Source: Deltaproteobacteria bacterium
GTDB lineage: Bacteria > Bdellovibrionota > UBA1018 > UBA923
NCBI GenBank assembly: GCA_016194795.1
Contig: JACQAX010000029.1
Span: 1 to 39,179, forward strand
DNA length: 39,179 nucleotides
Reading direction: 5' to 3'
The position numbers and the translations under genes were made by a program. Positions 2,691-18,895 of the stretch are shown here, one piece after another. Below the pieces are notes generated by a model. That model had not been told where the DNA came from. It ran no database searches and saw only the letters and a program-made list of their open reading frames with translations. Positions within the stretch are counted from its first letter, which is position 1; each line of letters begins with the position of its first letter.

Positions 2691-2859
2691 CGATTTGTAA
2701 TCGCTTACATACTCCTGAAAATAAAAGACTAATTTCCAGCCACCGATTTTTACGACGGGCGGAAAAAGCCGCGTACAATCTTTTTTAACGCATCGAATCA
2801 AAACAGGCACACCGGCAGATTGGGGCCGGTCTTGTACGTCAGTACGGAGGGTGGCCGCC

Positions 2860-2958
2860 ATGATGCAGAATAGACTGAATCTCTTTAAAGCACTCCTGCG
2901 CGTGGTCGTTCCGGGTGCCATCGTTTTCCTGGCCGCGACGGCGGCCGAAGCGTTCGCG
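2860..2958 (+). other. Sec-type signal peptide of the giant RHS protein
   Basis: MMQNRLNLFKALLRVVVPGAIVFLAATAAEAFA|KD has a basic n-region, a hydrophobic core and an A-x-A (AFA) cleavage-type site. Confidence 0.7.
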
Positions 2959-5900
2959 AAAGATCGCTTCAACATCCAAATTTCTCCGTCGATCGCAAAC
3001 GGCGTCATCGAAGGCCAGAGCGAAACCTTCACGTTGAAGGAAGTTCTGGCGCGTGGCCCTTCGCCTAAGAACGAAGACGACGATAGCGACGACTCCGACG
3101 ACGACCGCCCGCCGAAAGGCCCTCGCTGGCTTGCCGAGTACGTTTGGAATGGCACGGTCGTCGGCACGCAGGGACCGCAGAGCCTCGCGGTGGGGCAGGG
3201 CTTTGATTTTACGTACTCGACGGCGCGCCTGCATCCGGCGAGCGCGGGCACGTCCAACACGTTTGTCGTCAACGTGTACAAGGTTCACGGAAAAAAGGAC
3301 AAGCGAAGCCTCAAGCAGACGAGCTCGTATACCGTCGCCGTCCAGCAAGACCAGGTTAAGCCGGTCTTCGCGTGCAGCTCGTTTCCGCTCTCGAACCCTT
3401 ACGTCCAGAGCGCTCCTCAGATTCAATGCACGCTCAGCGACTCGCTTGGTTATCTCGACACGATGGGCGCGGGCTCGATTCTCCTCGACGGCGTCGATGC
3501 CACTTCGAGATTTCAGATCACGCCGTCGGGTACCGGTGTCTGGGTATCGACCTATCTTATTACGGGTAACCTGAACCCCGTGCCTGAAGGCGCGCACGTC
3601 CTGACGCTGGCTCGTGGAGCCGACCTCGCCGGAAACCAGGCGGCGCCGATCTCTTTCGGTTTCACGATCGACCGTACCGCTCCGCTGCTCACGTTTGTCG
3701 GTGGAACGCACGATCACGTCCTGACGAACCAACGGAGCTTCGCCGTCAACGTCGCCGTGAATGACGCGAGCCCGACGATTACGACCATCCTGCTCAACGG
3801 CGCTTCGGTGTCGACGTCGCTGTCGGCGTTTCCCAGCGCGACCGTGACGCTCGCCGAGGGAGCCAACGTCGTCGAGGTTCAGAGCGTGGACAAGGCCGGC
3901 AATGCCGCCGCTCCGCTCCGCCTCACCGATCTGGTTCTGGATACACAGGCGCCGAGCCTGGCTTCGCTCGCGCCGACTTCGAATAGCGCGGTAACCGGTC
4001 CGACGTTTACGGTGTCGGGCACCGCGTCCGAGCCCCTGAGCTCGGCCATGCTGGGGACGTTCGCGCTCACCCTCAGCCCCGACAAGAAAAGTTTCTCGGG
4101 GCAGGTGACGGTTCCCGGCTCTGGCCCGTTTCAGGCGAGCCTGGCGCTGGTCGATCTCGCGGGCAACAGCTCGAGCTCGAGCGTCGCCTACAACGTCGTC
4201 GTCCCACCGCCGTTCGCGATTTCAGTCGATTCGCCGAAAAACGGCTCGACCTCGGGCACGCGCTCCATCGCGATCAGCGGTTCGGGCAATCGCCCACTTG
4301 CCGGAGCGACGGTGAACGGCCTGCCGCTTTCAATCGCCGGAAACTCTTTTTCGGGCACGTTCAATGCTCCGTCCGACGGGCCGTTGAGCCTGGCGATCGT
4401 CGCGAGCTCGTCCGACGGTGCGACGGCGAACGCGAACCTTTCGATTCAAGTCGTCTCGGCGTCTCCTTTGGCGCTGACGAACCTGTCGCCGGCCGACGGC
4501 GCGACGGTTCAGGGGCCCACCTTTCCCGTTTCAGGGCAGGCCAATCGCCGGCTCGCGTCGATCACGCTCAATGGCCAGCCGCTCACGATCGCGCCTGACG
4601 GCGTCTCGTTTAGCGGAAGTTTCACCGTCTCGACCGGCAGTACCGGTAGTACCGGTACGGACTCATGCCCGGTCAACTATTCGTGCGGCCCCTATGCCGG
4701 TGGTCCCGTATCCACGGGCTGCCAAGTGCTCAACGGTATCACGCTCGCTTGCCCGAACAACCCGAGTTGCGACCCGATCAGCGGAAAATGTTCCAACGCG
4801 AGCACCGGCACCTGCGATCCTTCGGTTCAGACCTGCGGGCCAACTTCGCTTGCCAACTGCACGGTCAACGCGAACTTCTACGTCTGCCCGATCGGAAACC
4901 CCGGCGTTCCGAGCAACCCAAGCCTGCTGCCGCTCACCTGCACGATGCAGGGCGCTTATGTTTATTGCGCGATTTCAGGTGGCCCGGTCGCGCCCTATCC
5001 CGGACCGGGCACGACCCTGGCTGATTGCAGCTTCGCGCCGAACTCGGTGCTTTGCACTCTCGACGCTTCAAGCGGCAGCGCAAGTGGCAGTGCAAGTGGG
5101 AGCGGCACCCCGACGCCGATCGTGCTCACCTGGTCCGCCGTCGACGTGAACGGTGGCTCGATCAACGTCGTCACGCACGCCAACGTCCTGCCCGCCGCCG
5201 GCGGGCCGACGTTCGATATCGCGGTCGACTCGCCACAGCCCAACGCAACGCTTACCTCGCTCACCATTCCGGTAAGTGGCCACGCGACGGCTCCGATCGG
5301 GACGATCAACCTCAACGGCCAGTCGCTCCAGCTCAGCGCCGACAAGATGAGCTTCAGCGGAACCTACACCGCTCCGGGCTTTGGCCCGCTGACCCTTTCA
5401 TTTTCGGCGACCGCGCTGGTCGGAGGCGCCGGCGCCGGCGTTGCGGTTCCGGTGACGATCAGTAATGGCGGCGGACCGGGAGGCCTCGCGATTTTCGTAA
5501 CCGCTCCTCAGCAGGGCGCGATCGTCAACAGTGGCCCGTTGACCGTGAGCGGTCACACCAATAACCCGGTCACCAAAGTGTTCGCCAACGGCGCGCCGAT
5601 GCAGCTCGACGGGACAGGAATGAGCTTCACGGGTTCGATCAACGTTCCGCCCACGTCAGGCCCGTTCAATATCCAGCTCCAGGCCACCGATGGCGTCAAC
5701 CAGGCGTTCGCCTCGATCACCGTTCAGGTCGGCTCGGGTGGCACGGGTGGTCCGCCGCTCAGCCTCGCCATTCTCAGCCCGTCGTCGGGCCAGCAGATTT
5801 CCGGCCTTGCCGTCACGATCAACGGGCAGGCAAACACCGTGCTTTCGAGCATCGCGGTCAACGGCCAGTCACTTACGATCGGCGCGGACGGGACGAGTTT

Positions 5901-8900
5901 CTCGGGCACCTACACGGCCCAGGCCCAAGGCAACCTCGCGCTGAACTTCCAGGGCCAGGCGACGAACGGGTCGTCGGCCCAGACGTCGGTCTCCGTGACC
6001 GTGGGCACCGGCATCGCCCTGATCGTCTCGGCGCCCACCGGCGGCGTGATCTCGACCCAGACTTTTCCGGTCAGCGGCACGACGAACGCGCCGATTTCCA
6101 GCATTACGGTGAACGGTCAGCCGATTCCGATCGGCGCCGACCGCGTAAGCTTCTCCGGAACGTACACGGCCGCAAGCAACGGCCCGCTGAGCTTGGATTT
6201 CGAGGCGCTGCTCACCAATGGCGTGTCGGCCTCCAAAACGGTTTCCGTCACCGTCGGCCCGCCGGTCGTACTCACCATCACGAGCCCGACGCCGAACCAG
6301 GCGTTCTCTTCGTTCAATGTCCCGGTGAGTGGTCGCTCAAGCGTGCCTCTTTCAATAATAACGGCCAACGGACTGCCGCTCACGCTGGGCCCGGATCAAA
6401 TGAGCTTTTCGGGGACGTATGTTGCTGGAGCCCCGGGCTCGCAGGGCATCCTCGTCAGTGCCATCTCCGTGGACGGAATCAAGGGGTCCGAGACCATACC
6501 GATCGTCATCAATGGGTCGGTCACGCCGTCGCTCGCGATCAAGATCACCGACCCGACGCCCGGTACGATCATTCGCCCGGGAACGACCTTCACGTTGGGC
6601 GGCACCACGACCGCTCCCGTCGTCAGCGTCACGGCCAATGGCCAGCCCCTTACGATTTCCGCCGATCAGCAGAGCTTCAGCGGACAACTCACCGCGCCTC
6701 TCACCGCCGGTGGCTTCCAGATCACCGTCGTCGCGCGGGACAGCTCGGGCCGTACCGCCACCACGCTCGCCAACCTCCAGGTCACGCAGCTGACGATTGC
6801 ATTCGCCGGGCCGAACGGCGGGCTTTCCGACGGCCTGGTGCTTTCGCCGGGCCCGCTGGCGATTCAAGGCAGCTCAAACTTTCCGCTCTCGCAGGCGACG
6901 GTCAACGGGCAGCCGCTTTCCGTCGGCGTCAACAACGTCGCGACGGCCTTCGCGGGCACGATCAACGTTCCTTCTTCGCCCATCACGTTTCCGCTCAACT
7001 TCAGCTTCACCGACACGTTCGGCGACACGCTGACGCAAACGCTTACGGTGTATGCCGTCTCGACGCCGGGGCCGACTCAAGACCTTCCGCTTCTGTCGCC
7101 CGCGGCTTCGACGAGCCACTCCGTGCAATCCTTCCTGGTGGCGGGACGAACAAACGTGGGCGTGACGGCGTTGTTGGTCGACGGCCAGCCTCTGAGCGTC
7201 GCTCGCGACGGGCAGAGCTTTCACGGGCTTTACACCACGTTCGCGCCGAACGGCGCGTTCACGGCGACGTTCGAGCTGATTCTCGGCTCCAACGCCTCCA
7301 TCCGAGTGCCCGTGAGCTACACGATGAGCGGGCTGGGGATCGCGTTGACGGGGCTTACGCCGCCGCCGGGAGCAAGCTTCCTGCCGCAGAGTTTCACGCT
7401 CTCGGGGCAGACGAACCAGGACGCAAAGACGGTTCAGGGCGATGCCTACGCGCTCGCGGTCTCGATTTCGGAATATCTCTCGCTTGTGGGTCCGGCTCCG
7501 GAGTCGCTGCTCCAGCCGCTCGTCTACCGGCGCGCCTTCAGCGGCTCCTACACGGCCCAGTCGGGGCAGATCACGACGAATATTCGGCTCACGGATTCCG
7601 ACGGCACGATCGTCACGGTGCCGATCAACTACTTCGTGGGCACGGGCCCGCTTAAGGCGAGCGGCGTCTCGTTCGCGTCACTTTATGACATCACCCCGAC
7701 GAATGGGTCGGCCGTGGCCAGCGGCCCGGTCATCATCCAGGGCAAGTCGACGGTTTCGCTAGCGTCGATTTCGGTGAACGGAATGCCGCTTTCGCTCGTC
7801 GGACACCAGGGTTTCTCCGGCGGAATCACGCTCACGTCCACGGTTGACGCGGGGACGAGCGTGTTCGCTCCCACAGGCGACCCGGCGGCTCAGGTGCTCG
7901 TCTTCCATGCGACGACCTCCAGTGGAGACAGCTTCGACCAGAGCGTCACCCTCGAGGTTCAAAATGCCCCGCCGCTCGCGTTCGCGAACCTTTTGCCGAA
8001 CGACCAGACTCCGATCGAGGATCTCGGCTCGCAGCCTATTTCGGGCTCGGCGAACATCCCGCTCGCGCGGCTGTCGGGCACGGTCGCCAACGGAGCAGGA
8101 ACCGGCGACTTGCCCCTCTTCCTGTCGCCCGATGGCCTCTTCTTCACGGGCAGCTTCGATCAGAACTCGGGCGCGGATGCGAACGTGTCGCTCTCGTTTG
8201 CCGCCACCGACATGTTCGGCCGCAATCTCCAGCGTTCCGTGACCGTCCCGCTCGACAAGACCCCGCCCGTGCTCGCGCTCCAACAGCCGGCGCCGGGTGC
8301 GTATCTCAACAGCCTCACGAACACGATCGCGGGCTCGTCGGATCGGCCGCTTGCCTCGGTGCTCGTCAACGGCACGGTGTTCCCGACGCTCGAGCAAAGG
8401 GCCTTCTCGCTTAGCTATGCGTCGGCGTCCGACGGACCGGTCTTGGTCGGGGCGACGAGCGTCACTGGCGGCGTACGGCCGCCCTCGTTGGCGTTCACCG
8501 TCGACACCACTCCGCCCGTGCTCGCCACGGTCACCCCGGGCGATGGCGCCTCGTTCGACGCCGTATTTCGAACCTTTCTCATCACCGGGCGCTTCGACGA
8601 GAACGTGGTCTCGGCGACCGTCAACGGCCTGGCGTGCTCGATCGGGGACGACGCGTTGTCGTTCAACGCGAACGCCACCGCGCTGACCGACGGGCCCCTC
8701 GATCTCCACTTCGTGTTCACCGATCGCGCGGGAAACGTCGCGCAAACCGACGTGAACGTCGTGGTCACGCAATCGGCCCTGAACGGAAATCTCGTGAGCG
8801 TGCAGCCGGTGCCGGGATCGACGAATCTGCGGATCGTCGGCGCTCCCGGCGCGGCCAAGGCCGGAAATACGGTGAACGCGAGCAGCGGAATCTTCACCTC

Positions 8901-11900
8901 CGGTTCGGCCGTCGCGGCCGATGACGGAAGCTTCGTGATCGCGCTTCCGCTATTTGCCCAGGCCGCGGTGTGGACGGTAAACCAGGTCTCGGGCCGAAAC
9001 GACTCGACGACGGTTTACTTCGGCGCGGGGGCCGGCACGAGACTGTCGGGTACCGTGAAGGACACGAGCGGCAACCCGCTCGCTGGCGTCACGGTGAGCC
9101 TTGCCGGTCGAAACGTGCAGGCGCTGACCGACTCGAATGGGGTCTTCAACTTCGTCGACCCGGCCACGGGAAACCAGACCCTGGTCGTCGACGGCGGCAC
9201 CGTGCCGCAGCCTTCGACGGGGCCCAATCGCGTTTTCTCGAAAACTTCGGTCGCGATCAACGTCGGCCTGGCGCAGGCCACCGTCATCAGCCGCCCGATC
9301 TTTCTCGCGCCGATCGTGATGGACGGCTCGCAGACGCCGGTCTCGGCGACGTCCGGCACCACGGTCACGAGCCCGGCCGCTCCTGACGTCTCGCTGACGA
9401 TTCCGGCGGGCGCGGCGACGTTCCCGAACGGCGCCACCTCGGGTGTCGTGTCGATGAGCACGATCTCGTCGCAGTTCTCGACGATCGAGCCCATGAAGTT
9501 CGCCGCCCCCAACAACGTGATCGCGCTCGAGCCTTCGGGCACGAAGTTCTCGGAAGACGTTCGCCTCACCGTGCCCAACGACAACCAGCTGCCGGAGGGA
9601 ACCGACGTCGTCATTCTCTCGATGAACTCGACCAAGGGCATCTGGGAAATCGGCGGCGCCGGCACCGTCGACAGCGGCGGCCGCACCATCACGACCAAGC
9701 CCAATATGGGCATTCGCCACTTCAGCGTGGTCTACGCGACGCCGATCGGCCCGAAGATCGGCCAGATCGGCGCGCAAGACCGCCCGGGAGCCGACACGTT
9801 CAATGGCGCTCTTACGACCGGCATCACGCTTCCGAGCTACAAGTCGCTCGGCCAGAGCATCGCGCCGTCGCTCGTCTACAAGAGCAGCTGGGCTCGCCCC
9901 ACGGCGATGTTCACCAACATGATCGACGTGCCGAGAAGCGACATCACGCTGGACTTCACGCAGGTGCTCGCTTCGCAGGAGCACGCCTATAACGTGACCG
10001 ACCACGAAACCGCGCATGGCTGGATCGAACCCGACTTCATCACGGCGCAGTTCCTGACTACCGGCCTGACGAGCGACGTGGCCACGATGACGGGTCTGCC
10101 CAATCAGGCGACGGTCAGCTACGCGCTCGAGCTCGCGCCGCCGGCCGGTTCCACGCCGGTGCCGGCCGCGGGCGGCTACCTCGCGAGCGACTCCTACCCG
10201 TATCTCTCGCACTGGGAGCTGCACCTCAAGCAGATGGTGCTGCGCACGAGAGAGGTCGTGCTCTGGCGCGCCGACACCGGCGCCCAAAGCATCATCCGGC
10301 AGGACAGCTGGGGCGAGACGCGCCAGCTCGAGAAAGTTTTCCCGTCCGACTTCCAGGGGCTGCTCTACGTCCAGAACCAGACGCAGTCGAGCGCGGGGCG
10401 CGGCTGGCGCGTGGGTGGCATGCAACGCATCGTCAACACCTCCAACGTGCGGGCGATGGTCGAGGAGGCCGATGGCTCGCTTACGGGCTATTCGCAGAAC
10501 AACACGATCACGACGCTCTTCAACGCCGACGGCACCGGCGTCGATCTGAACAGCGGCACCGACTTCACGGCTTATCCCTATGCCACCGTTGAAACCGGAG
10601 TGACCGTCGCGCAGACCGACCTCACCGCCGGGACCAACGCCATTTCGAGCATCGCCACGCTTGCCCGGCGCTTCAGCGCCCGCGTGCTGGGCTGGGCCTG
10701 CTTTGATTCGACCTTCAACGGCAACGTCCTGTGCTGGTCGGGCGGACACTCCTTCGACGTCGACCGCACGCTCTCGCACATGCTCAGGCTTCCGGACGGA
10801 CGGGTGTTCGCCGTCGACTCGCGCGGCAGCCAGGTCTTGCTGATCAACACCGACGGTACGCAGACGATTTTCGCCGGCACCGATCGCTTGCCGCACACGT
10901 ACTATTCCACGCCGAGCTCGCTTTGGGACAACAGCACCAACGTGACGCACACGAGCTGCGCCAACGCGGTCCAGGTTCCGTGGGTGAACTGGTCGGGCCA
11001 GCAGTTCGTCGTGCCCCCGACCTCGAACACGGTGGCCGCCGACACGTTCACCGACGCCGACAACCTCGCCGACCTTCGCCAAAAGATCGACCTGGGCACG
11101 TTCACTTTGGATAACCTTTCGGGCGCGCAGAGCAGACCCGACGGCTCGTATCCGGACTCGGGCTTTCAGGTCGGCCCGTCGAACACCGATTCGATGGGCG
11201 CGTATCGGCAGTGCTCGAGCGGTGTTCTTCCGGATCGCGGCTTCTCGGGCGACGGCGGCGCGCCCTCGCTCGCGCGCCTGAACAATCCGCTGAGCGTGGC
11301 GCCGGGGCTTGGCACCTCGATCCTGATCGTCGACACGGGCAATAACCGCGTGCGCCAGGCCGATCTCGTCAACAACGTGATCACGACCATCGCCGGTAAC
11401 GGCACGAGCTTCGACAACGGCGACGGCGGCCAAGCCCTCCAGGCCGGTCTTTTTCACCCACGCGCCGCGGCCTACGACGTTCAGGGCAACCTCTATATCT
11501 CGACCGAGAACGGCTACATCCGCAAGGTCGACCAGGCTGGCGTGATCTCGACCTTCGCCGGTCTGCCCCAGTCGCTCGGCGGAACGTTCGGCGAAGGTCT
11601 GCCGGCAACCCAGATCATCCTGCAGCGGCCCACGGGCCTTGCCGTCGACAACGTCAACGGCTACCTCTACGTCGCCGACACCGGCTCGGACGTCATCCGC
11701 CGCATCGACTTCCTGACGCAAAGAGCGGTGACAGTCGCCGGCAACTTCACGCCGGGCTACTCGGGCGACAACGGGGCGGCTCTCAACGCCTCGCTCTCGA
11801 GCCCGCTGTGGATCGGCCTTGATCCGAATCAGAACTTGCTCATCGCCGACACGGGCAACCAGCGCATCAGGAAAGTGACGTTCCAGACGCCGGGCGCTGG

Positions 11901-14900
11901 TGGGCAGGTGGTCTACGCCCCGAACGCGCCGACCGACCACAGCACTCTTGCGAGAAACGGCGATGGCTCGTGGGTGCGCACCTATCGAAACGGCACCACG
12001 GTGCTCTTCGACGTGAAGGGCCACCAGATCGGGTCGCAGGACCGCGTGGGTAGAGCCACGGCCTATCAGTACGACAGCGACGGCAACATGACTGCGTTCA
12101 CCGATCCGGTGGGGCGCACGACGACGTACTCGTATTCGGGTGGCTTGCTGGGGTCGATCACCGATCCGGCCGGAAGGACGACGCAGTTCACTTATGCGAA
12201 CGGGCTGCTGACTTCGGTCGTCTTCCCGGACGGGACACAACGCCAGTACGGTTATGACGGTAAAGCTTTGTTGAATGCCGAAACCGACGAGCGCGGTTTT
12301 ACGACGCATTATGTTTACAATGACTTCAACCGCCTGACGGCGGTTACGAAGGCTGACGGATCGACGGTGACTGTGAACGACTCGGCTTCGGCTACGGCCA
12401 TGAACTCGTTTGCGGTTGGGCCGAGTGGTGGGACGCTTAAGACCTTTGGCGTCGACAGCGGCCAAATCTACGACGGCATCAGGGACGCGAGAAGTTTTGA
12501 GACAAAATTCTTAAAAGACACTTCGGGCTACATCACAACGATCGTCGATGCAAACGGGCAGACGACGACGGTAGATCGAAATGCCAAAGGTCAGCCTACG
12601 TTGATCACTCGCCCTGACGGCACAACGGTGTCATTCACGTACGATCCCGCGACAGACGATCTTATTGCTCAGTCTGACTCGGCTTTGAACGTGTCGACGA
12701 GCCAGACTTACGATGCCTTTGGAAACATTCTTACCCAAACCGACGGGCGAGGTTTCACGTCCGCAACGACTTACGACCCTGCGACAGGCCTCGTCCTTTC
12801 CAAAAGCGATCCCCTGGGGCATGGGCCAAGCTATCAGTACAACCAACTTGGGCTTCCCACGATAATGAGCAACGCTCTCGGAAAGTCGACGACTACGCGC
12901 TACGACGCTTTCGGAAACGTGAGCTCGATCACTGACCCGCTAAATCATACAACGAGCTATGTACGAGATCTCGCTGGGTATACGATTTCGATGACTAATG
13001 CCAAGAATCAGACGACGCAGTATCAACACGATTCATTCAATCGTCTGAGTTCGGTCACGAATCCGAAAAACGAAACCACAAGCTACATCTATCTCGCAAG
13101 TGGTCAACTTTCGCAGATCAGCGACCCTCTCGGTGGAGTTACGAGTTTTCAGTACGACGTTCTTGGCCGGCTGAGCTCAAAAACAGATCCGCTTGGCATG
13201 ACTACGAGCAGGGGATACGACGCCAACGACAACGTGGTTCAGGAAAATGATCCTAACAGCAACGTGAAGACGTACGTCTACGATAACCTGAATCGACTCA
13301 TTCAGAAGACGCTTCCCGATAACGTAATCACGATGAGCTACGACATTCGCGGAAACATGCTCCAAGCCGCGAACCAGCAAGGCGCCATAGGCTTCGGCTA
13401 TGATGTCGGCGGAAGGTTGACCTCGACCACGACCTCGGGGTCGGGATTGCCGACTGCGACGTTGGCCTTCCAATACGATGCCAATGGCAATCGTCTCAGC
13501 ATGACCGACCCGGTTGGCGTGACGAGCTACAGCTACGATCAGGCCAGCCGCCTCACGAGCCTTACCAATCCTAAAAACGAGAACTTCATGTTCGGGTTTG
13601 ATGCGGCCAATCGACCGACTTTGATTATTAGGCCCGGAAGTAGTACGGCCCTCGCGTTTGACGATGCGAATTTCTTGACGTCGATCGTGCACTCGAATTC
13701 CAGTGGAACGCTTGCATCTTACGGCTATGTGATGGATGCGATCGGAAACCGGACTGCGGTGACGACGCAGGCTGGGACTCAGAACTTCGACTACGACAAT
13801 AACAGCCAGCTTACGAGTGCTAGTAACCCTGAAGCCGCCGCTTTGAATGCAAACGAGACGTTTACGTATGACTCGGTCGCTAATCGAAAAAGCGATCAGA
13901 ACGGCGCGTACAACTATGACGGGAAAAATCAGCGCCTGACCGAGGACTACGGCTATACGTATACCTACGACAATAATGGAAACCTGATCGCGAAGTCCCA
14001 AAAGGGGCTAAACGGTGGGACGACGAACTTTTATTATTCGTCTGAAAACCAGCTCCTGAGCTTCAAAGTCTACGACCCGACATTCAGCTCAAGCCAGCCG
14101 ATCAAGGAAGTGACTTACAGCTACGACGCAATCGGTAGGCGCGTTTCCAAGCAAGTCGTTGATCATTCTGCTGAGACTGACGTCACCAAGACCTTCGGGC
14201 GCCGCTACGTCTATGACGGCCAGGAGATTCTTCTTGAGTATGATGCGGGCAACAATCTGCTCGCGCGTTACACGCACTCGGGTCTTCAAAGCGACGACGT
14301 GCTTACCGTCGACGTGAGGTCCGCCGGTGTATCCGTGGGCCTTGCCCAAAATACACAGACGTACACCTACCTGAAAGATGCGCAGGGATCAGTGCGCGAC
14401 GTTGTCGATACATCCGGAAATAAAATTCAGCACTACATCTATACTGCGTTTGGCGTGCTCCTTGGAATCCAAGACGCAAATGCCGCAGATGTGACGACAA
14501 GTCCTCCGGTTCGGACGAGTTATACATTCACGGGACGGGAGCTCGATAGCGAGAGCGGAAATTACCACTATCGCGCGCGCGTGTATGATCCGCGTACTGG
14601 GCGCTTCATCCAAAAGGACCCTAGCCCTGGAGTTTTGAAACTCCCAATAACTTCGAGCAATACATACATTTATAGCGCCAATAGCCCGACGAACTTTAAG
14701 GACCCGTCGGGAAGAAATTTCATCGGTTCCGCTATCGGGAATATCTCGCATGCGCTTCTTGAAACAATTGCAGGGCCCTTAGGCGGAGTTTTCGGTGCGG
14801 CTGGCTGGCATGCTTTTCAGGGTGGCACAATTTGGAAGGACTTCCTCGCAGCTGCCGCCGTAACTCTGATTGGCATAGCCATCGCAGCGGCACTACCGGC

Positions 14901-15246
14901 GGAAGCAGTAGGAATTGGGACTTTCATCGCGGTTGGCGCTCTCGTAGGCGCCGTATCGGGAGCGCTTTCTGCGTGGATTACAGGGCAGAAACTTCCTGGC
15001 ATCTTGTTAGGCGCAGGGCTGGGTGCTTTGGCTGGGGCAATTGGCGCAGTGATTGGTCACCCGGAAAGTGGCCTTACGGTCGTTCAGAAAGTAATCGGGA
15101 ACGCCGCTGTCGGCGCCCTGCTCTCACCGCCCGATATCCTCCCGGAAAAGGAGCAGGAGGATCTCGATCGTTGTTTTCTGCCTGGACCAGCTCCCATGCA
15201 GGATCCAAATGACCATTTAGATTTCCCCGCTGCATCATACCTGTAA
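2860..15246 (+). CDS. giant secreted RHS/YD-repeat polymorphic toxin (Ig-like repeat stalk, Cys-rich insert, CarboxypepD_reg-like, NHL, YD shell, RHS core, Gly-zipper C-terminal toxin domain)
   Basis: Single uninterrupted ORF 2851..15246 (4131 codons in the track, which starts at GTG 2851). GGAGG at 2846-2850 lies 9 nt before ATG 2860, so 2860 is the preferred start. Domain motifs read directly from the translation are listed in the sub-features below. Confidence 0.95.
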   Translation: MMQNRLNLFKALLRVVVPGAIVFLAATAAEAFAKDRFNIQISPSIANGVIEGQSETFTLKEVLARGPSPKNEDDDSDDSDDDRPPKGPRWLAEYVWNGTVVGTQGPQSLAVGQGFDFTYSTARLHPASAGTSNTFVVNVYKVHGKKDKRSLKQTSSYTVAVQQDQVKPVFACSSFPLSNPYVQSAPQIQCTLSDSLGYLDTMGAGSILLDGVDATSRFQITPSGTGVWVSTYLITGNLNPVPEGAHVLTLARGADLAGNQAAPISFGFTIDRTAPLLTFVGGTHDHVLTNQRSFAVNVAVNDASPTITTILLNGASVSTSLSAFPSATVTLAEGANVVEVQSVDKAGNAAAPLRLTDLVLDTQAPSLASLAPTSNSAVTGPTFTVSGTASEPLSSAMLGTFALTLSPDKKSFSGQVTVPGSGPFQASLALVDLAGNSSSSSVAYNVVVPPPFAISVDSPKNGSTSGTRSIAISGSGNRPLAGATVNGLPLSIAGNSFSGTFNAPSDGPLSLAIVASSSDGATANANLSIQVVSASPLALTNLSPADGATVQGPTFPVSGQANRRLASITLNGQPLTIAPDGVSFSGSFTVSTGSTGSTGTDSCPVNYSCGPYAGGPVSTGCQVLNGITLACPNNPSCDPISGKCSNASTGTCDPSVQTCGPTSLANCTVNANFYVCPIGNPGVPSNPSLLPLTCTMQGAYVYCAISGGPVAPYPGPGTTLADCSFAPNSVLCTLDASSGSASGSASGSGTPTPIVLTWSAVDVNGGSINVVTHANVLPAAGGPTFDIAVDSPQPNATLTSLTIPVSGHATAPIGTINLNGQSLQLSADKMSFSGTYTAPGFGPLTLSFSATALVGGAGAGVAVPVTISNGGGPGGLAIFVTAPQQGAIVNSGPLTVSGHTNNPVTKVFANGAPMQLDGTGMSFTGSINVPPTSGPFNIQLQATDGVNQAFASITVQVGSGGTGGPPLSLAILSPSSGQQISGLAVTINGQANTVLSSIAVNGQSLTIGADGTSFSGTYTAQAQGNLALNFQGQATNGSSAQTSVSVTVGTGIALIVSAPTGGVISTQTFPVSGTTNAPISSITVNGQPIPIGADRVSFSGTYTAASNGPLSLDFEALLTNGVSASKTVSVTVGPPVVLTITSPTPNQAFSSFNVPVSGRSSVPLSIITANGLPLTLGPDQMSFSGTYVAGAPGSQGILVSAISVDGIKGSETIPIVINGSVTPSLAIKITDPTPGTIIRPGTTFTLGGTTTAPVVSVTANGQPLTISADQQSFSGQLTAPLTAGGFQITVVARDSSGRTATTLANLQVTQLTIAFAGPNGGLSDGLVLSPGPLAIQGSSNFPLSQATVNGQPLSVGVNNVATAFAGTINVPSSPITFPLNFSFTDTFGDTLTQTLTVYAVSTPGPTQDLPLLSPAASTSHSVQSFLVAGRTNVGVTALLVDGQPLSVARDGQSFHGLYTTFAPNGAFTATFELILGSNASIRVPVSYTMSGLGIALTGLTPPPGASFLPQSFTLSGQTNQDAKTVQGDAYALAVSISEYLSLVGPAPESLLQPLVYRRAFSGSYTAQSGQITTNIRLTDSDGTIVTVPINYFVGTGPLKASGVSFASLYDITPTNGSAVASGPVIIQGKSTVSLASISVNGMPLSLVGHQGFSGGITLTSTVDAGTSVFAPTGDPAAQVLVFHATTSSGDSFDQSVTLEVQNAPPLAFANLLPNDQTPIEDLGSQPISGSANIPLARLSGTVANGAGTGDLPLFLSPDGLFFTGSFDQNSGADANVSLSFAATDMFGRNLQRSVTVPLDKTPPVLALQQPAPGAYLNSLTNTIAGSSDRPLASVLVNGTVFPTLEQRAFSLSYASASDGPVLVGATSVTGGVRPPSLAFTVDTTPPVLATVTPGDGASFDAVFRTFLITGRFDENVVSATVNGLACSIGDDALSFNANATALTDGPLDLHFVFTDRAGNVAQTDVNVVVTQSALNGNLVSVQPVPGSTNLRIVGAPGAAKAGNTVNASSGIFTSGSAVAADDGSFVIALPLFAQAAVWTVNQVSGRNDSTTVYFGAGAGTRLSGTVKDTSGNPLAGVTVSLAGRNVQALTDSNGVFNFVDPATGNQTLVVDGGTVPQPSTGPNRVFSKTSVAINVGLAQATVISRPIFLAPIVMDGSQTPVSATSGTTVTSPAAPDVSLTIPAGAATFPNGATSGVVSMSTISSQFSTIEPMKFAAPNNVIALEPSGTKFSEDVRLTVPNDNQLPEGTDVVILSMNSTKGIWEIGGAGTVDSGGRTITTKPNMGIRHFSVVYATPIGPKIGQIGAQDRPGADTFNGALTTGITLPSYKSLGQSIAPSLVYKSSWARPTAMFTNMIDVPRSDITLDFTQVLASQEHAYNVTDHETAHGWIEPDFITAQFLTTGLTSDVATMTGLPNQATVSYALELAPPAGSTPVPAAGGYLASDSYPYLSHWELHLKQMVLRTREVVLWRADTGAQSIIRQDSWGETRQLEKVFPSDFQGLLYVQNQTQSSAGRGWRVGGMQRIVNTSNVRAMVEEADGSLTGYSQNNTITTLFNADGTGVDLNSGTDFTAYPYATVETGVTVAQTDLTAGTNAISSIATLARRFSARVLGWACFDSTFNGNVLCWSGGHSFDVDRTLSHMLRLPDGRVFAVDSRGSQVLLINTDGTQTIFAGTDRLPHTYYSTPSSLWDNSTNVTHTSCANAVQVPWVNWSGQQFVVPPTSNTVAADTFTDADNLADLRQKIDLGTFTLDNLSGAQSRPDGSYPDSGFQVGPSNTDSMGAYRQCSSGVLPDRGFSGDGGAPSLARLNNPLSVAPGLGTSILIVDTGNNRVRQADLVNNVITTIAGNGTSFDNGDGGQALQAGLFHPRAAAYDVQGNLYISTENGYIRKVDQAGVISTFAGLPQSLGGTFGEGLPATQIILQRPTGLAVDNVNGYLYVADTGSDVIRRIDFLTQRAVTVAGNFTPGYSGDNGAALNASLSSPLWIGLDPNQNLLIADTGNQRIRKVTFQTPGAGGQVVYAPNAPTDHSTLARNGDGSWVRTYRNGTTVLFDVKGHQIGSQDRVGRATAYQYDSDGNMTAFTDPVGRTTTYSYSGGLLGSITDPAGRTTQFTYANGLLTSVVFPDGTQRQYGYDGKALLNAETDERGFTTHYVYNDFNRLTAVTKADGSTVTVNDSASATAMNSFAVGPSGGTLKTFGVDSGQIYDGIRDARSFETKFLKDTSGYITTIVDANGQTTTVDRNAKGQPTLITRPDGTTVSFTYDPATDDLIAQSDSALNVSTSQTYDAFGNILTQTDGRGFTSATTYDPATGLVLSKSDPLGHGPSYQYNQLGLPTIMSNALGKSTTTRYDAFGNVSSITDPLNHTTSYVRDLAGYTISMTNAKNQTTQYQHDSFNRLSSVTNPKNETTSYIYLASGQLSQISDPLGGVTSFQYDVLGRLSSKTDPLGMTTSRGYDANDNVVQENDPNSNVKTYVYDNLNRLIQKTLPDNVITMSYDIRGNMLQAANQQGAIGFGYDVGGRLTSTTTSGSGLPTATLAFQYDANGNRLSMTDPVGVTSYSYDQASRLTSLTNPKNENFMFGFDAANRPTLIIRPGSSTALAFDDANFLTSIVHSNSSGTLASYGYVMDAIGNRTAVTTQAGTQNFDYDNNSQLTSASNPEAAALNANETFTYDSVANRKSDQNGAYNYDGKNQRLTEDYGYTYTYDNNGNLIAKSQKGLNGGTTNFYYSSENQLLSFKVYDPTFSSSQPIKEVTYSYDAIGRRVSKQVVDHSAETDVTKTFGRRYVYDGQEILLEYDAGNNLLARYTHSGLQSDDVLTVDVRSAGVSVGLAQNTQTYTYLKDAQGSVRDVVDTSGNKIQHYIYTAFGVLLGIQDANAADVTTSPPVRTSYTFTGRELDSESGNYHYRARVYDPRTGRFIQKDPSPGVLKLPITSSNTYIYSANSPTNFKDPSGRNFIGSAIGNISHALLETIAGPLGGVFGAAGWHAFQGGTIWKDFLAAAAVTLIGIAIAAALPAEAVGIGTFIAVGALVGAVSGALSAWITGQKLPGILLGAGLGALAGAIGAVIGHPESGLTVVQKVIGNAAVGALLSPPDILPEKEQEDLDRCFLPGPAPMQDPNDHLDFPAASYL
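3664..8950 (+). repeat. protein-level tandem array of about 16 Ig-like (bacterial Ig/cadherin-like) modules
   Basis: A ~90-100 aa unit recurs, ending in NG(Q/L)PL(T/S)I..D..SFSG(T/S)(Y/F)TA. Examples: KMSFSGTYTA, GTSFSGTYTA, RVSFSGTYTA, QMSFSGTYVA, QQSFSGQLTA, GVSFSGSFTV. Module boundaries look like DRTAPLLTF, DTQAPSLASL, DKTPPVLAL and DTTPPVLATV. The DNA copies are diverged, so this is not a nucleotide tandem repeat. Boundaries are approximate. Confidence 0.75.
4665..5055 (+). other. Cys-rich insert within the Ig array, followed by an SGSASGSASGSG linker
   Basis: 14 Cys in about 130 aa (SCPVNYSCGPY...GCQVLNGITLACPNNPSCDPISGKCSNASTGTCDPSVQTCGP...CTLD). The rest of the 4,100-aa protein contains only a handful of Cys. 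Confidence 0.8.
9034..9200 (+). other. carboxypeptidase-regulatory-like (transthyretin-like fold) domain
   Basis: RLSGTVKDTSGNPLAGVTVSLAGRNVQALTDSNGVFNFVDPATGNQTLVVDGG fits the CarboxypepD_reg pattern G.V.D..G.P..G..V.......TD..G.F. Confidence 0.75.
11268..11883 (+). repeat. NHL-type beta-propeller blades (at least 4 visible)
   Basis: Blade-like repeats: LNNPLSVAPGLGTSILIVDTGNNRVRQADL; LFHPRAAAYDVQGNLYISTENGYIRKVD; LQRPTGLAVDNVNGYLYVADTGSDVIRRIDF; LSSPLWIGLDPNQNLLIADTGNQRIRKVTF. Confidence 0.75.
12061..14100 (+). repeat. YD/RHS repeat shell (more than 25 YD motifs)
   Basis: Repeated xYxYDxxGNxxxxxD units, e.g. YQYDSDGNMTAFTD, QTYDAFGNILTQTD, TRYDAFGNVSSITD, FQYDVLGRLSSKTD, FQYDANGNRLSMTD, YSYDQASRLTSLTN. 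Confidence 0.9.
14107..14715 (+). other. RHS repeat-associated core ending in a cleavage-type motif
   Basis: RYVYDGQEILLEY...YTYLKDAQGSVRDVVD...YTFTGRELDSESGNYHYRARVYDPRTGRFIQKDP...YIYSANSPTNFKDPSGR. This matches the canonical RHS core end (YHYRARYYDPxxGRFxxxDP ... PxxxxDPxG(L)). The DPSGR motif is at 14701..14715. Confidence 0.85.
14716..15243 (+). other. variable C-terminal toxin domain: Gly/Ala-zipper hydrophobic, predicted membrane-inserting
   Basis: 176 aa follow DPSGR. They contain GPLGGVFGAAGW, LIGIAIAAALPAEAVGIGTFIAVGALVGAVSGALSAWITG, GILLGAGLGALAGAIGAVIG and VIGNAAVGALL, which are stacked GxxxG/AxxxG zippers, followed by an acidic/Pro tail. I saw no nuclease, deaminase or ADP-ribosyltransferase catalytic motif. 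Confidence 0.6.
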
Positions 15247-15268
15247 GATTTGATAGGATTGAGTTCAT

Positions 15269-15844
15269 ATGGAGATTCGAGACTTCAAAGTCGGCTTCGC
15301 GCGGGTCGTGTCATTACGAGGAAGTCTCGCCTATGTTGGTATCGTGTGGCTTAAGATTCAGCTGCTTTTCAACGGGATAATGCTTTTCGTTTTGGTCAAC
15401 AGTTTGGCGAATGACATGATCTCTATCCGAAGCCCACGCATTCCTATAGGTTTCGCTCTTTATGTCTTGGCTTTGACGCTGATTTTTTCGCCATTTCTTT
15501 ACAGGCGGATATACAGGTACGCGTTCTATTGGTTCCGGTTTGGGGAGAACGGTCTGGATCTTTATGAGGACAAAGACTGTAAGCGTCTTTGTCAAAATAT
15601 CCCTTACGACCGAATCAATTCATTCTATCACGTTAAGCCGAATTTCATTTGGAGCGATAGTCTGCTTCCGAAATCTACCCATGCAGACTGGGAGCAGACA
15701 TTTATACGCTACGATACGGCTGGAAATTTTAGTTCTGTCGCGAGTCTGGACCTTGGTCCGAAGACCCCTGCTGACGTTTCCAGCTTGGTAGCTCAGTTTC
15801 GAAGTCGATGTCCCAAGATAGCCATTCGACCGGGTAACGGCTAG
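15269..15844 (+). CDS. candidate cognate immunity protein (small membrane protein, 2 N-terminal TM helices plus soluble tail)
   Basis: 191-aa ORF starting 22 nt after the toxin stop, same strand. It shares the low G+C of the toxin 3' end. Hydrophobic segments: LAYVGIVWLKIQLLFNGIMLFVLVNSLA and IPIGFALYVLALTLIFSPFLY. I recognise no family. Confidence 0.6.
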   Translation: MEIRDFKVGFARVVSLRGSLAYVGIVWLKIQLLFNGIMLFVLVNSLANDMISIRSPRIPIGFALYVLALTLIFSPFLYRRIYRYAFYWFRFGENGLDLYEDKDCKRLCQNIPYDRINSFYHVKPNFIWSDSLLPKSTHADWEQTFIRYDTAGNFSSVASLDLGPKTPADVSSLVAQFRSRCPKIAIRPGNG

Positions 15845-15916
15845 AGCCGCCGCTCGGGCGTTGGAGCGGGAGCAAAGACACTCAAGTTCGCCCGCGGTAT
15901 AGTTTTGATTCGGTTT

Positions 15917-18895
15917 CTATTGGAGCAGCAACTCGAGGTCTTCCCGAGTAAGCTTCTTAATGAAGTCCTGATCCTCAGACAAGATCGACTCCGCAAGCTC
16001 CCGCTTGGTCTTCTGCAGATCGAGAATCTTCTCTTCAACGGTGCCCTTGGCGATCATGCGGTAAGCGAATACTTTTTGCTGCTGGCCGATGCGATGCGCG
16101 CGGCCGATGGCCTGGGCTTCGACGGCCGGGTTCCACCACGGGTCGAGGATGAAGACGTAGTCGGCGGCGGTGAGATTGAGACCGGTGCCGCCGGCCTTCA
16201 GGCTGATGAGGAATGCCTGGCATTTCGGATCGGTCTGGAAGCGCTCGACCGGGGCTTTGCGGTCGTCGGTCTGGCCGTCGAGATACTCGTACACGATGCC
16301 GGCCTGGTCGAACTGGTCTTTGACGAGCGCGAGCAGGCTGGTGAACTGCGAGAAGACGAGAGCCTTGTGGCCTTCCTGGATGACTTCCTGCACGTGGTTC
16401 GTCAAAAGGCTCAGCTTGGCGCTCGCCTCGGCCTTCATGTCGGGGTTGATGAGGCCGGGGTGGCAGGCGGCCTGGCGCAGGCGGAGCAGCGCTTCGAGCA
16501 CGTGGATCTTGGCTTTTCCGAGACCGCCCTTGTCGATCTCGCCGGCAAGGGACGCGCGATAGTGGTCGCGAAGCGCGTTGTAGAAGGTGCGCTCCTCGGT
16601 GCTCATCTCGCAGTACAAGACCTGCTCTGATTTTTCGGGGAGCTCGGTCAGGACCTTTTCCTTCGTGCGGCGAAGGACGAAGGGGCCAAGCATGCGCTGG
16701 AGCATCTGGCGCGCATCCGAGTTCACCTCGCGCGTTTTCGGGATGTTGAGAAGGCCTGGGCTCGTGAACTCGAGGATGGAGAACAGGTCGGAGAGCGAGT
16801 TCTCGATCGGCGTGCCGGTCAGCGCGAGCTTGTGGGCGGCGTTGAGCTGCTTGACGGCCATCGACGACTGGGCCTCGGGGTTCTTGATCGCCTGCGCCTC
16901 ATCGACGATCGCCACGTCGAAGTTGACGTCGCGAAGCTTCTCGATGTCGGTGCGCAGCGTGCCGTACGTCGTGACGACGAGATCGGCTTTCGAGAGATCT
17001 TTCAAAATCTTGGAGCGTCCGGGCCCGGAGTAGGCCACGACCTTGAGCTCGGGGACGAAGCGCTCGGCTTCGTCGAGCCAGTTGAACACGAGGCTCTTGG
17101 GCGCGATGACGAGCGCGGGGCCGTCGGTCTTCTTCTCGCGGCCCTTGAGGAAGGCGAGCACCTGAATCGTCTTGCCGAGACCCATGTCGTCGGCGAGGAT
17201 GCCGCCCATCTGGAACTCTTCGACGAACTCGAGCCAGGCCAGGCCCTCTTTCTGGTAATTTCTGAGCTTGCCCTTGAAGCCCTTGGGCGCCTTGCCTTCT
17301 TTGACGCCTTCGAACTTCTGGATGCGCTCGCGAAACGACGAGAAGCCCTTGTCGGCTTTCACGTTGGCGCTGGGACCAAGCGCGGCGTTGAGCATGAGGC
17401 CCTGCGACTTGTTGAAGCGCAGCGTGCCGTCCTTGCTCTTCTCGCCGAACTGGCCGATCGAGGCGAAGCGCGAGATCCACTCCTGGGGCAGCATGCCGAG
17501 CGAGCCGTCGGCCAGGCGCACGAAACCCTGCTTGGCTTCGAGGGCGGCGAGCAGCGCGTTCTGGCCGATGGCGGCGTTGCCGAAGCTGGCCTCCATCTTG
17601 AGGTCGAACCAGTCGGTGTCGGTGCTGACGTTCATGGCGAAGTCGCTCGCGGCGAGCAGCTTCTGGTTTTCCATGTAAACCGTCCAGCCCGCGGCGGTGA
17701 GCTCGCTGGCGACGCGATGGAGCTCGGGTGACGGGAAGGTGCCCGTGCCCTGGTCGTCGCGCAGGATCTTCAACGCATCGGTCAGAGTCTTCTCTTCGAA
17801 CGCCGGGTTGCGCGAGATCACGCGCTTCTGGTCGACGTCGATGAAAGTTTCGGCCGTGTCGTTCAACGTCATCTCGTGGCCGGCGTAGTCGAAGCTCACG
17901 GTGAGCGTCATGCGCTCGCCCGAGATCCCGAGCGGCCGGAAGACGCCCTTGGGCTTCGGGTCGATGACGATCTTCTGCCAGCCCATGTCGTCGGGCCAGG
18001 TGACTTTCGGCACGGCCGGGTCGGTGAGGATGCGGCGAAGGACGAGGTCGCCCTGGTCGCGCGGCACGAGAAACTCTTCGGTGCTTCTGAGCGCCGAGGC
18101 CCACGCGACCTGGCGCGGGTCGGAGAGCTTTCCCATGCGGTCGGCGAAAAGCAGGAAGCTCGAGCGGAAAATGCAGAGCGGCTCGTTCAGGCCGCGGGTT
18201 TCGTTGTCGCGCTTGAGCAGGCCGCCCAGACGGTAATGCTCGGGGGTCGCGGCTTCGATCTTGAGCTCGAGGTCCCAGGCCTTGCCGCGATCCATGCGGA
18301 TCGGACGATCGGCGTCGTCGGGCGAGCCGTTGGGCGAGCGCGAGAGAAAAAGTTTTCCGGCGCTCGTGAGCGACGGCAGAAGATGCGTCTCGAGAATCGG
18401 GTCGACGGTGAAGCGCGAGCACATATTGCCCGAGGCGCGCCCGAAGGGGGCGAACGTCTGCGGGTCGCAGGTTCGGGCGAGCACCGAGAGCACCTCGCGG
18501 TCGCGCACGTCGGTGAAGCGCGTGAGGTCGCCGCCGTTCGGCATGCGGTTGGGCTTCAGGGGCCCAAGGCCGCCGTTCGAGAGCCGGTCGCGCGTCCAGA
18601 GGTCGAGCACGAGCTTGCTGCTCGCGATCGTCTCGGCCGCGTTGACGACGAAGAAGGCAAGCCAGGTGCCCGCGAAGGTGTTGGCCGGTCTGCCGCCGCT
18701 TACGCCCTGGATCTGGTCGAGGCGCGCGCGCCAGCTCGAGACGGCCGGCATGGTGGGTGAGCTGACCGAGCGCGCCTGGGGACTTTGTTGAGGTCCGGGC
18801 TGTCCGCCGGTGGGTGCCGCTGACGGTGAGCGCGTAGGTGTTGTCGGTGCGCACGGGGTCGGAGACTCGTCCGCCTGTGAAGAATTCTTTACCAA
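15917..18895 (-). CDS. SNF2-family (RapA/HepA-like) DNA-dependent ATPase/helicase
   Basis: LRNYQKEGLAWL, ILADDMGLGKTIQ (I), VAIVDEAQAIKNP (II), LTGTPIENSL (III), FSQFTSLL (IV), LISLKAGGTGLNLTAAD (V), DPWWNPAVEAQAIGRAHRIGQ (VI). The track start (18895) is probably not the real N-terminus; see the next feature. Confidence 0.9.
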   Translation of the reverse strand: MVKNSSQADESPTPCAPTTPTRSPSAAPTGGQPGPQQSPQARSVSSPTMPAVSSWRARLDQIQGVSGGRPANTFAGTWLAFFVVNAAETIASSKLVLDLWTRDRLSNGGLGPLKPNRMPNGGDLTRFTDVRDREVLSVLARTCDPQTFAPFGRASGNMCSRFTVDPILETHLLPSLTSAGKLFLSRSPNGSPDDADRPIRMDRGKAWDLELKIEAATPEHYRLGGLLKRDNETRGLNEPLCIFRSSFLLFADRMGKLSDPRQVAWASALRSTEEFLVPRDQGDLVLRRILTDPAVPKVTWPDDMGWQKIVIDPKPKGVFRPLGISGERMTLTVSFDYAGHEMTLNDTAETFIDVDQKRVISRNPAFEEKTLTDALKILRDDQGTGTFPSPELHRVASELTAAGWTVYMENQKLLAASDFAMNVSTDTDWFDLKMEASFGNAAIGQNALLAALEAKQGFVRLADGSLGMLPQEWISRFASIGQFGEKSKDGTLRFNKSQGLMLNAALGPSANVKADKGFSSFRERIQKFEGVKEGKAPKGFKGKLRNYQKEGLAWLEFVEEFQMGGILADDMGLGKTIQVLAFLKGREKKTDGPALVIAPKSLVFNWLDEAERFVPELKVVAYSGPGRSKILKDLSKADLVVTTYGTLRTDIEKLRDVNFDVAIVDEAQAIKNPEAQSSMAVKQLNAAHKLALTGTPIENSLSDLFSILEFTSPGLLNIPKTREVNSDARQMLQRMLGPFVLRRTKEKVLTELPEKSEQVLYCEMSTEERTFYNALRDHYRASLAGEIDKGGLGKAKIHVLEALLRLRQAACHPGLINPDMKAEASAKLSLLTNHVQEVIQEGHKALVFSQFTSLLALVKDQFDQAGIVYEYLDGQTDDRKAPVERFQTDPKCQAFLISLKAGGTGLNLTAADYVFILDPWWNPAVEAQAIGRAHRIGQQQKVFAYRMIAKGTVEEKILDLQKTKRELAESILSEDQDFIKKLTREDLELLLQ

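Follow-up and report, generated by a model that had tools for sequence, protein, structure and literature searches.

A composition breakpoint within the YD shell of a teneurin-like protein gene from Bdellovibrionota suggests exchange of its 3′ part

Introduction

Bacterial teneurin-like proteins (TLPs) are defined by N-terminal adhesin modules, a superfold composed of the FN-plug, the NHL domain and the YD shell, a polymorphic toxin in the C-terminal domain (CTD) of approximately 15 kDa, and an immunity gene located downstream (PMC13018210). The structures 9pt5 and 9ifo represent the TLP of Bacillus inaquosorum, BiTLP (Raoelijaona et al., Nat Commun 2026; PMC13018210). In the survey reported with this protein a TIP domain is present in 96% of the TLPs. 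The survey covers six phyla and makes no mention of Bdellovibrionota; it links TLPs with predatory or social bacteria and describes the superfold as invariant, with variation confined to the N- and C-terminal regions on either side of it (PMC13018210). In this article we describe a TLP gene from a member of the Bdellovibrionota, which constitutes a single open reading frame (ORF) of 4131 aa at nt 2851–15246 on the plus strand of the contig JACQAX010000029.1 (assembly GCA_016194795.1). The base composition of this gene changes abruptly within the YD shell. The whole contig, which is 39,179 bp long and belongs to a metagenome-assembled genome (MAG), was analyzed. It is referred to as the window, and coordinates without a contig name are counted from its first nucleotide.

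The 4131-aa protein shares with BiTLP the bacterial Ig and TTR-like adhesin modules following a Sec signal, the NHL propeller succeeded by the YD shell, the DPxG-type motifs at the end of the shell, the small polymorphic CTD and a small gene directly downstream. It differs from BiTLP in its size, 4131 aa as compared to 2237 aa, which is due to a very long Ig array, in its Bdellovibrionota host, and in the composition break, which falls within the superfold.

Exchange of the C-terminal part of YD-repeat proteins has been described for the Rhs elements of Enterobacteriaceae (Jackson et al. 2009; PMC2935791). In E. coli the Rhs core is G+C-rich and the core extension is A+T-rich (PMC2935791). According to the displacement model, the incoming tips, which are joined through homologous recombination inside the core, bring along core fragments that vary in length, and very high core identity is presumed (PMC2935791).

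Results

The G+C content determined in 500-nt windows is 0.64–0.67 up to 12.0 kb, 0.50–0.55 between 12.5 and 16.0 kb, and 0.62–0.70 beyond. The mean G+C content within 12.2–16.0 kb is 0.524, as compared to 0.647 elsewhere on the contig. The preliminary description of the locus had drawn attention to this drop by counting four single 60-nt lines by hand, and the counts of 44/60, 25/60, 25/60 and 39/60 proved to be exact. In the frame of the gene, the G+C content at the third codon position (GC3) falls from 0.83 to 0.60 across the change-point of the ORF 2851–15246, and the values at the first and second positions (GC1 and GC2) fall from 0.58 to 0.53 and from 0.53 to 0.47, respectively. The maximum-likelihood change-point of GC3 is located at codon 3128, which corresponds to nt 12235. 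The log-likelihood gain of 101.5 and the narrow 2-lnL support interval, which spans the 90 nt from nt 12163 to nt 12253, show that the transition is abrupt and not gradual. Amino-acid composition is not the cause of the GC3 step, since the codons ending with G or C are rarer downstream of the step in 17 out of 18 amino acids when the comparison is stratified by amino acid (Cochran-Mantel-Haenszel test, z = -13.7, p = 7e-43). A gradual change or a cause lying in the amino acids alone, which the preliminary description had considered as grounds for abandoning its reading of an abrupt drop within the RHS gene, was thus not found by either the change-point analysis or the stratified codon test. 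The 50-codon windows of the island have a GC3 of 0.596 +/- 0.075 (n=23) with a maximum of 0.74, and the native windows on the contig have a GC3 of 0.867 +/- 0.082 (n=158). The native genes flanking the TLP gene show GC3 values of 0.85–0.93.

The step lies approximately 62 residues, or three YD repeats, past the start of the YD repeats. This agrees with the earlier estimate by eye, which had placed the transition near 12.2–12.25 kb, just behind the first YD repeats. The part with native composition (nt 2851–12234, plus strand, GC3 0.83) comprises the signal peptide, the Ig stalk, the TTR-like domain, the NHL domain and the first three YD repeats (nt 12046–12234). The step is located directly 3′ of the conserved motif ...VVFPDG of the YD shell, and the switch in codon usage is visible in the raw sequence. 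The FPDG columns are invariant across the alignment of the family, and both the reading frame and the alignment to the relatives run unbroken across the breakpoint.

The native part itself is not uniform. The first ~750 codons (nt 2851–5100) have a GC3 of 0.76, as compared to 0.85 in the remaining native part (likelihood ratio (LR) 16.4), which could be due to an older, ameliorated exchange or to mere local variation. An antisense ORF of 1171 aa is located on the minus strand at nt 8950–12465, opposite the native high-GC portion of the TLP gene, and stops approximately 230 nt past the drop in G+C. This ORF is an artefact of the scarcity of stop codons at high G+C content, and it is an independent marker of the boundary.

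The island downstream of the breakpoint is two-tiered. The first tier (nt 12235–14385, plus strand, aa 3129–3845) encompasses the bulk of the YD shell and has a GC3 of approximately 0.64 and a G+C content at the first two codon positions (GC1+2) of 0.474. In the second tier, which extends from there over the core end and the CTD to the end of the downstream ORF, GC3 is approximately 0.52. The second change-point is placed at codons 3841–3852 (~nt 14385), with an LR of 8.8 as compared to a maximum of 7.6 in 300 permutations. This is where the Rhs-associated core domain TIGR03696 begins (aa 3864–3954), and the second tier opens with the RHS core end, which carries the putative autoproteolysis site (nt 14386–14715, plus strand). 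This tier begins approximately 110 codons ahead of the cleavage motif, near the usual zone of Rhs recombination. The main breakpoint at codon 3128 lies approximately 830 codons before the core end, and only the weaker second step is found near that zone. This bears out the earlier remark that the transition is situated far upstream of the usual recombination point of RHS genes.

Definition of the right edge of the island was not straightforward from the nucleotide composition. The nucleotide change-point at 16078 falls approximately 160 nt inside the gene for an SNF2-family helicase, which is encoded on the minus strand at nt 15917–18895 (Pfam SNF2-rel_dom, 1.3e-63, and Helicase_C). In the 3′ tail of this gene, GC3 stays at approximately 0.75 up to the stop codon and GC2 alone falls, to 0.21, with Lys, Glu, Leu, Ile and Asp being abundant in the encoded sequence. 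The low G+C content of the tail is therefore an effect of the amino acids, and a crossover inside the SNF2 gene was ruled out as the right edge. The orthologues of the SNF2 protein align up to residue 991–992, so the 3′ end of the gene is intact. Accordingly, the island of codon usage ends in the 72-nt gap (nt 15845–15916) between the convergent immunity and SNF2 genes, and the SNF2 gene is a native gene which lies outside the cassette and bounds the island.

The domain content of the 4131-aa protein identifies the gene as a bacterial TLP gene in which the FN-plug is unconfirmed: neither the FN-plug nor the TIP domain gave a sequence-profile match in the protein. The N-terminus contains a hydrophobic h-region ending with ...AAEAFA, judged by eye, without a signal-peptide predictor, to be a Sec-type signal. 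The stalk is composed of the Pfam domains Glucodextran_B, Big_3_3, Big_13 (Ig-like) and CarboxypepD_reg, the last of which corresponds to the TTR-like domain (nt 9043–9192, plus strand). The NHL domain directly 5′ of the shell (the propeller, ~nt 11218–11955, plus strand) is recognized by the Pfam models TEN_NHL (E 3.4e-18 to 1.7e-16) and NHL, and in phmmer searches this region matches the NHL domains of BiTLP and the teneurins. The YD/RHS shell is covered by 18 stretches of the Pfam model RHS_repeat (E 9.9e-84 to 3.7e-73) and by the NCBIfam models TIGR01643 and TIGR03696; the closest relatives bear the precomputed annotation PF25023 TEN_YD-shell. The best sequence matches in the PDB are the structures 9pt5 and 9ifo, annotated as 'Teneurin-like protein' (E ~1e-65). 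An AlphaFold model of aa 2115–3060 was poor as a whole (mean pLDDT 56), with a confident NHL propeller (pLDDT 80–93). Its top match in Foldseek is 9ifo (E 1.6e-21, 783 columns), followed by metazoan teneurins. The alignments to 9ifo and the teneurins span 780–960 columns, as compared to 200–300 for proteins sharing only the NHL domain, at TM-scores of only 0.19–0.27. Within the limits of a poor model and low TM-scores, this suggests that the similarity to TLPs and teneurins extends upstream of the NHL domain.

The preliminary description had called the gene RHS. This name holds for the YD/RHS shell with its core motifs; the NHL domain and the match to 9pt5/9ifo make the gene a TLP gene, not a generic or type VI secretion system (T6SS)-type rhs gene. 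Scans for PAAR, VgrG or T6SS domains gave no match in the TLP protein or on the contig. Within the stalk, the segment encoded at nt 4660–5073 forms a cysteine-rich insert of 138 aa, which contains 14 of the 22 cysteines of the protein and is embedded in an otherwise cysteine-free array of Ig-like domains.

The end of the core contains the motifs DPRTG (3913), DPSPG (3923) and DPSG (3951). It reads YDPRTGRFIQKDPSPG-(23 aa)-DPSGR at aa 3912–3955, which is the autoproteolysis signature of RHS proteins; cleavage itself is putative. The two parts of the autoprotease motif are spaced by 23 residues, as compared to the usual ~18–20, and the first of them reads DPxxG.

The CTD consists of 176 aa (nt 14716–15243, plus strand). 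Gly and Ala together make up 34% of its residues; it contains the GxxxG motif nine times and has two extended hydrophobic segments. No match to it was found in Pfam, NCBIfam, PADLOC or the PDB, nor any similarity to the CTDs of the relatives. Twenty-two nt past the stop codon of the TLP gene starts an ORF of 191 aa (nt 15269–15844, plus strand, GC3 0.53). Hydropathy predicts two N-terminal transmembrane helices followed by a soluble domain in its product, which likewise gave no match in Pfam, NCBIfam, PADLOC or the PDB. A hit of the PADLOC model ThsA Macro to the transmembrane region (E = 0.0074) was set aside as noise. Judged by composition and position, the CTD is a putative membrane-inserting, pore-forming toxin, and the product of the downstream gene would be the cognate immunity protein protecting against it. 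The protein as a whole is best read as a polymorphic toxin exported by the Sec route, with its small putative toxin enclosed in the YD/RHS shell.

Tse5 of Pseudomonas aeruginosa is an Rhs effector with a C-terminal pore-forming, membrane-active toxin. The structure of Tse5 (PDB 8cp6), cited as Gonzalez-Magana et al. 2023 (PMC13018210), matches the shell of the TLP with an E value of 1.7e-27. By analogy, an RHS shell may be combined with a C-terminal membrane-active toxin in both proteins, a likeness seen in the hydrophobic, glycine-zipper-like composition of the CTD. The CTDs of the two proteins have no detectable sequence similarity, and Tse5 is delivered by a T6SS, for which there is no context here.

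The species-representative genomes were scanned with the NHL-to-YD junction, which revealed 15 loci; the species of the window is absent among them, and the best match has 56% identity. Fourteen of the 15 loci belong to Bdellovibrionota, namely to Bacteriovoracia, Oligoflexia, Pseudobdellovibrionaceae and the two cultured Bdellovibrio isolates HCB274 and HCB-162. This shows that teneurin-like proteins are widespread in a phylum outside the TLP survey (PMC13018210). The related loci (L004–L018) have the architecture of Ig stalk, NHL domain and shell in common, encode proteins of 1950–3130 aa and have a G+C content of 32–57%. A single genome can contain a pair of paralogues, for example L009 with L015 or L007 with L016. 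The closest relative of the window gene is P0001, located on the contig L001 with a G+C content of 42%. On this contig, genes for an IS66-family TnpB, a DDE transposase and a phage-type integrase are found at L001:5105–9209, 1–4 kb downstream of the P0001 TLP gene and its putative immunity gene.

Comparison with these relatives supports a foreign origin of the 3′ block. With a value of 0.474, the GC1+2 of the shell lies below that of the homologues from a MAG with 54–57% G+C (0.508 and 0.505). The GC1+2 of the stalk end, 0.545, is higher than in the same homologues (0.514 and 0.524), as expected for a host with a G+C content of ~65%. The regression of GC1+2 across the family implies that the shell evolved at a GC3 of approximately 0.55. 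A composition step at the junction of the NHL domain and the shell is present in none of the 14 relatives. In L009, the relative with the highest GC3 (0.70), the shell has a GC3 of 0.73 and the stalk of 0.67, which is no drop. The step is therefore not intrinsic to YD-coding DNA. The island spans the end of the gene together with the immunity gene and stops at the convergent native gene. Donors are plausible as well, as the family is characteristic of Bdellovibrionota with 32–57% G+C, the host's own phylum.

A minor deviation was noted in the NHL segment (nt 11350–12234, aa 2834–3128). Its GC3 of 0.85 is native, and its GC1+2 is 0.547, as compared to 0.601 expected from the family regression, a shortfall of approximately 2.7 residual standard deviations. 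It might reflect an older acquisition whose GC3 has been fully ameliorated, or non-linearity of the regression.

Another mosaic TLP gene was observed in the family. It is located at L015:5804–13990 in the Bacteriovoracaceae MAG ERP119705_co22_393 (CAYIHX010000026.1). In this gene GC3 changes from 0.75 to 0.49 at codon ~567 (~nt 7438 of that locus; LR 62.6), which coincides with a switch in the lineage of the best match. The head of 545 aa is most similar to L009, the paralogue from the same MAG (348 bits, as compared to 175 for the next match), and the body is most similar to the clade of L004, the window gene and P0001. The native flanking genes of L015 have a GC3 of 0.52–0.67, so that the head lies above and the body below the native value; L015 was for this reason accepted only in part as a simple parallel with a native head and a foreign body. 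No nucleotide similarity between L015 and its paralogue L009 was found by blastn. In a further pair, L016 and L008, the shells share 63% identity and the NHL domains 56%, against the trend of the family (z = 3.6), which hints at exchange at the level of the shell elsewhere in the family. Together with the mobile-element genes near P0001, these two cases speak for intragenic exchange among the TLP genes of the family.

Traces of an insertion event were looked for along the contig. No tRNA genes are present on it, no integrase or transposase was detected among the ORFs scanned across it, and there are no flanking repeats of note and no exact repeats at either edge of the island. Elsewhere in the window no orphan fragments of the shell, the CTD or the immunity gene were found; in a tblastn search with the NHL–shell–CTD sequence the best E value was 0.028. 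The preliminary description had noticed the same lack of integrase, transposase, tRNA and orphan toxin or immunity fragments, and the scans bear it out. A site-specific or transposon insertion, or an island of the integrase type, was rejected on these grounds and on account of the left edge, which lies inside an ORF.

Discussion

We propose that the 3′ block of 3.7 kb, which begins past the third YD repeat of the shell and includes the entire immunity gene, probably originates from a homologous TLP locus of a lineage with lower G+C content (~50% GC). The resident TLP gene would have recombined within the gene body with the homologous lower-GC locus, the incoming segment being joined in frame to the stalk and the NHL domain. 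The replaced stretch would extend from the fourth YD repeat through the end of the immunity gene. A smaller nested replacement from ~nt 14385, including the core end, the CTD and the immunity gene, would probably be more recent, or may have taken place earlier in the donor. This smaller event would correspond to the classical Rhs C-terminal displacement accompanied by a core fragment (PMC2935791). The larger event would be the same kind of process, with the crossover placed unusually far upstream and no orphan tip left behind. The observed GC3 of 0.64 is above the value of 0.55 implied by GC1+2, for which partial amelioration is a speculative explanation. Foreign origin, replacement of the 3′ and not the 5′ part, and recombination as the mechanism are most likely.

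What the locus has in common with the Rhs displacement is a YD-core toxin gene in which the base composition of the 3′ part and of the gene downstream deviates from that of the rest; the start of the second tier ahead of the cleavage motif also fits the model. The locus differs in the position of the main breakpoint so far upstream of the core/CTD junction, by which nearly the whole shell would be replaced, in the lack of displaced orphan tips or core fragments downstream, in the difference of more than 10 points of G+C between donor and recipient, and in the gene not being of the T6SS/PAAR type. The upstream breakpoint is thus an extreme of a known process, the replacement of Rhs C-termini, and not a new process.

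Several observations weigh against this reading. The window gene shares 59.3% identity with P0001 ahead of the boundary and 57.9% past it. In every segment its nearest neighbours are L004 and P0001, with which the neighbour-joining (NJ) trees of the stalk end, the NHL domain and the shell all group it (bootstrapped nearest neighbour). In the first tier, the shell shares 57–58% amino acid identity with L004 and P0001. The NHL distances pair L004 with P0001 (0.37) and leave the window gene outside (0.41–0.42), and in the shell the three are equidistant (0.39–0.40). When shell identity was regressed on NHL identity across the family, the relative-rate residuals were non-significant (z = 1.4–1.7). 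Phylogenetic discordance of the window gene was consequently discarded, as the segment identities, the NJ trees and the regression contain no significant signal of it. The preliminary description had named agreement between the phylogenies of the 5′ and 3′ parts as an argument that would overturn a foreign origin, and such agreement is what is seen at the available depth, that is, with relatives of ~58% identity. An exchange inside the clade of L004 and P0001 escapes the phylogenetic test, because the nearest relatives are only ~58% identical.

Among the counts against the reading are further the results of the search for a donor. No donor was found, the best match of the shell and CTD in that search having 58% identity. 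The immunity protein is nearly an orphan, with two weak matches among 1.84 billion representatives, the better of which has 33% identity, and exact-sequence look-ups of the immunity and ADC proteins returned no identical record. A blastn comparison with all loci of the relatives yielded only two stretches of ~185 nt at 70–71% identity, none of them at the junction. In genome and metagenome scans, a syntenic locus in a close relative was not found; in the metagenome scan the SNF2 orthologues are 60–72% identical, and none of them adjoins a TLP gene or another gene of the window. Nor is there a displaced orphan tip, a gene of a mobile element, a tRNA or a flanking repeat to mark the event. Recombination between sequences so unlike in codon usage would need explaining, for example by short patches of conservation or by an intermediate donor that is more closely related. 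Two of the composition tests have limits of their own. The calibration of GC1+2 consists of only two relatives above 50% GC and extrapolation. The correlation of the tetranucleotide signature is the lowest of the contig in the island (r = 0.20), and the repetitive Ig stalk is also low (0.32–0.36), so this test is confounded and lends weak support. The early view of a foreign cassette of shell, toxin and immunity gene on a native stalk therefore stands as far as the abrupt drop at the codon level, GC1+2 and the control L009 are concerned; phylogeny is neutral to it, and it lacks a donor.

The pattern is symmetrical, and the single in-frame junction at nt 12235 is silent on which of its sides is newer. 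The reverse polarity is therefore to be considered, in which the whole TLP–immunity locus would be foreign (~50% GC) and its 5′ 9.4 kb with the stalk and the NHL domain would have been overwritten later by gene conversion from a paralogue of native composition. Genomes of the family can hold two TLP paralogues, as L009/L015 and L007/L016 demonstrate, the 5′ head of L015 resembles the paralogue from the same genome, and the 5′ part of the window gene is itself heterogeneous in its first ~750 codons. Such a history requires, however, a second paralogue that was not seen, with only the 39-kb contig at hand. A foreign insertion of 13 kb should also leave a foreign 5′ end or upstream intergenic region, none of which is seen, as both sides adjoin native genes, and the two-tier structure of the 3′ part fits repeated 3′ replacement more naturally. 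We consider the reverse polarity improbable.

A metagenome assembler might also have joined a high-GC genome to the 3′ segment of a TLP gene from another population and then returned to the first genome. The contig originates from a MAG, which speaks against the proposed replacement as well, and the conserved motifs at the junction are common to TLP genes. Two joins would nevertheless be required. The left one is in frame with an unbroken alignment, where ~59% amino acid identity and differing codon usage make a common k-mer unlikely, and the right one would sit in non-homologous DNA, an orphan immunity gene facing the intact 3′ end of the native SNF2 gene. The lack of exact repeats at the edges likewise disagrees with an assembly chimera, which we regard as very unlikely.

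The Rhs cores of E. coli are G+C-richer than the genome, hence YD-coding DNA has no built-in bias towards low G+C. Together with this, the shift of GC1+2 along with GC3, the course of the shift, which is stepped without regard to the domains and passes the gene boundary into the immunity gene, the native codon usage of the first three YD repeats and the lack of a step at the junction in any relative, including L009, leave hardly any room for a local cause without transfer. Such a cause could be a mutational or expression effect, or selection for slower translation or for folding of the shell with its hydrophobic cargo during translation. It remains very unlikely even if the phylogeny is concordant across the boundary and the boundary lies near the structural transition from the NHL domain to the shell.

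With a replacement from a lower-GC homologue as the favored explanation, the locus is an unusually large instance of the known diversification of polymorphic toxins, found in a TLP gene of a phylum outside the TLP survey. If this explanation is true, the exchangeable unit goes beyond the C-terminal tip and comprises the whole encapsulation shell with the toxin and the immunity gene, and a shell of mixed native and foreign YD repeats can remain one intact reading frame. This bears on the modularity of the cage, both in natural diversification and in the engineering of TLP, Rhs or Tc cages for new cargo. The effect on the understanding of these systems is incremental, since composition breaks in Rhs elements and 3′ replacement have been known for decades. 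The finding also places TLPs in Bdellovibrionota, a largely predatory phylum, which fits the link to predatory and social bacteria made in the survey (PMC13018210).

A broader generalization is tentative and, in our judgement, rather doubtful: the TLP genes of Bdellovibrionota may be routinely rebuilt by nested 3′ replacements whose crossovers can occur anywhere along the gene body, L015 being an example for the Ig stalk, the window for the beginning of the shell and its second tier for the core end. If true, the stalk, the shell and the toxin/immunity pair would be shuffled between species more than 10–20 G+C points apart, and the GC3 gradient of 0.85, 0.64 and 0.52 in the 5′-to-3′ direction would record successive events. 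The shell too, and not the toxin tip alone, would then be an exchangeable module of the weapon.

The host of the locus is a member of Bdellovibrionota with high G+C content (~65%), whose CcoNO protein is 72–82% identical to proteins from Bdellovibrionota/Oligoflexia MAGs. Outside the TLP locus the contig consists of ordinary chromosomal sequence. The subunits CcoN and CcoO of the cbb3 oxidase are encoded as a fusion by a single ORF of 727 aa on the minus strand at nt 35912–38092. The close homologues all carry both Pfam domains, and the CcoN–CcoO fusion is typical of the host's group.

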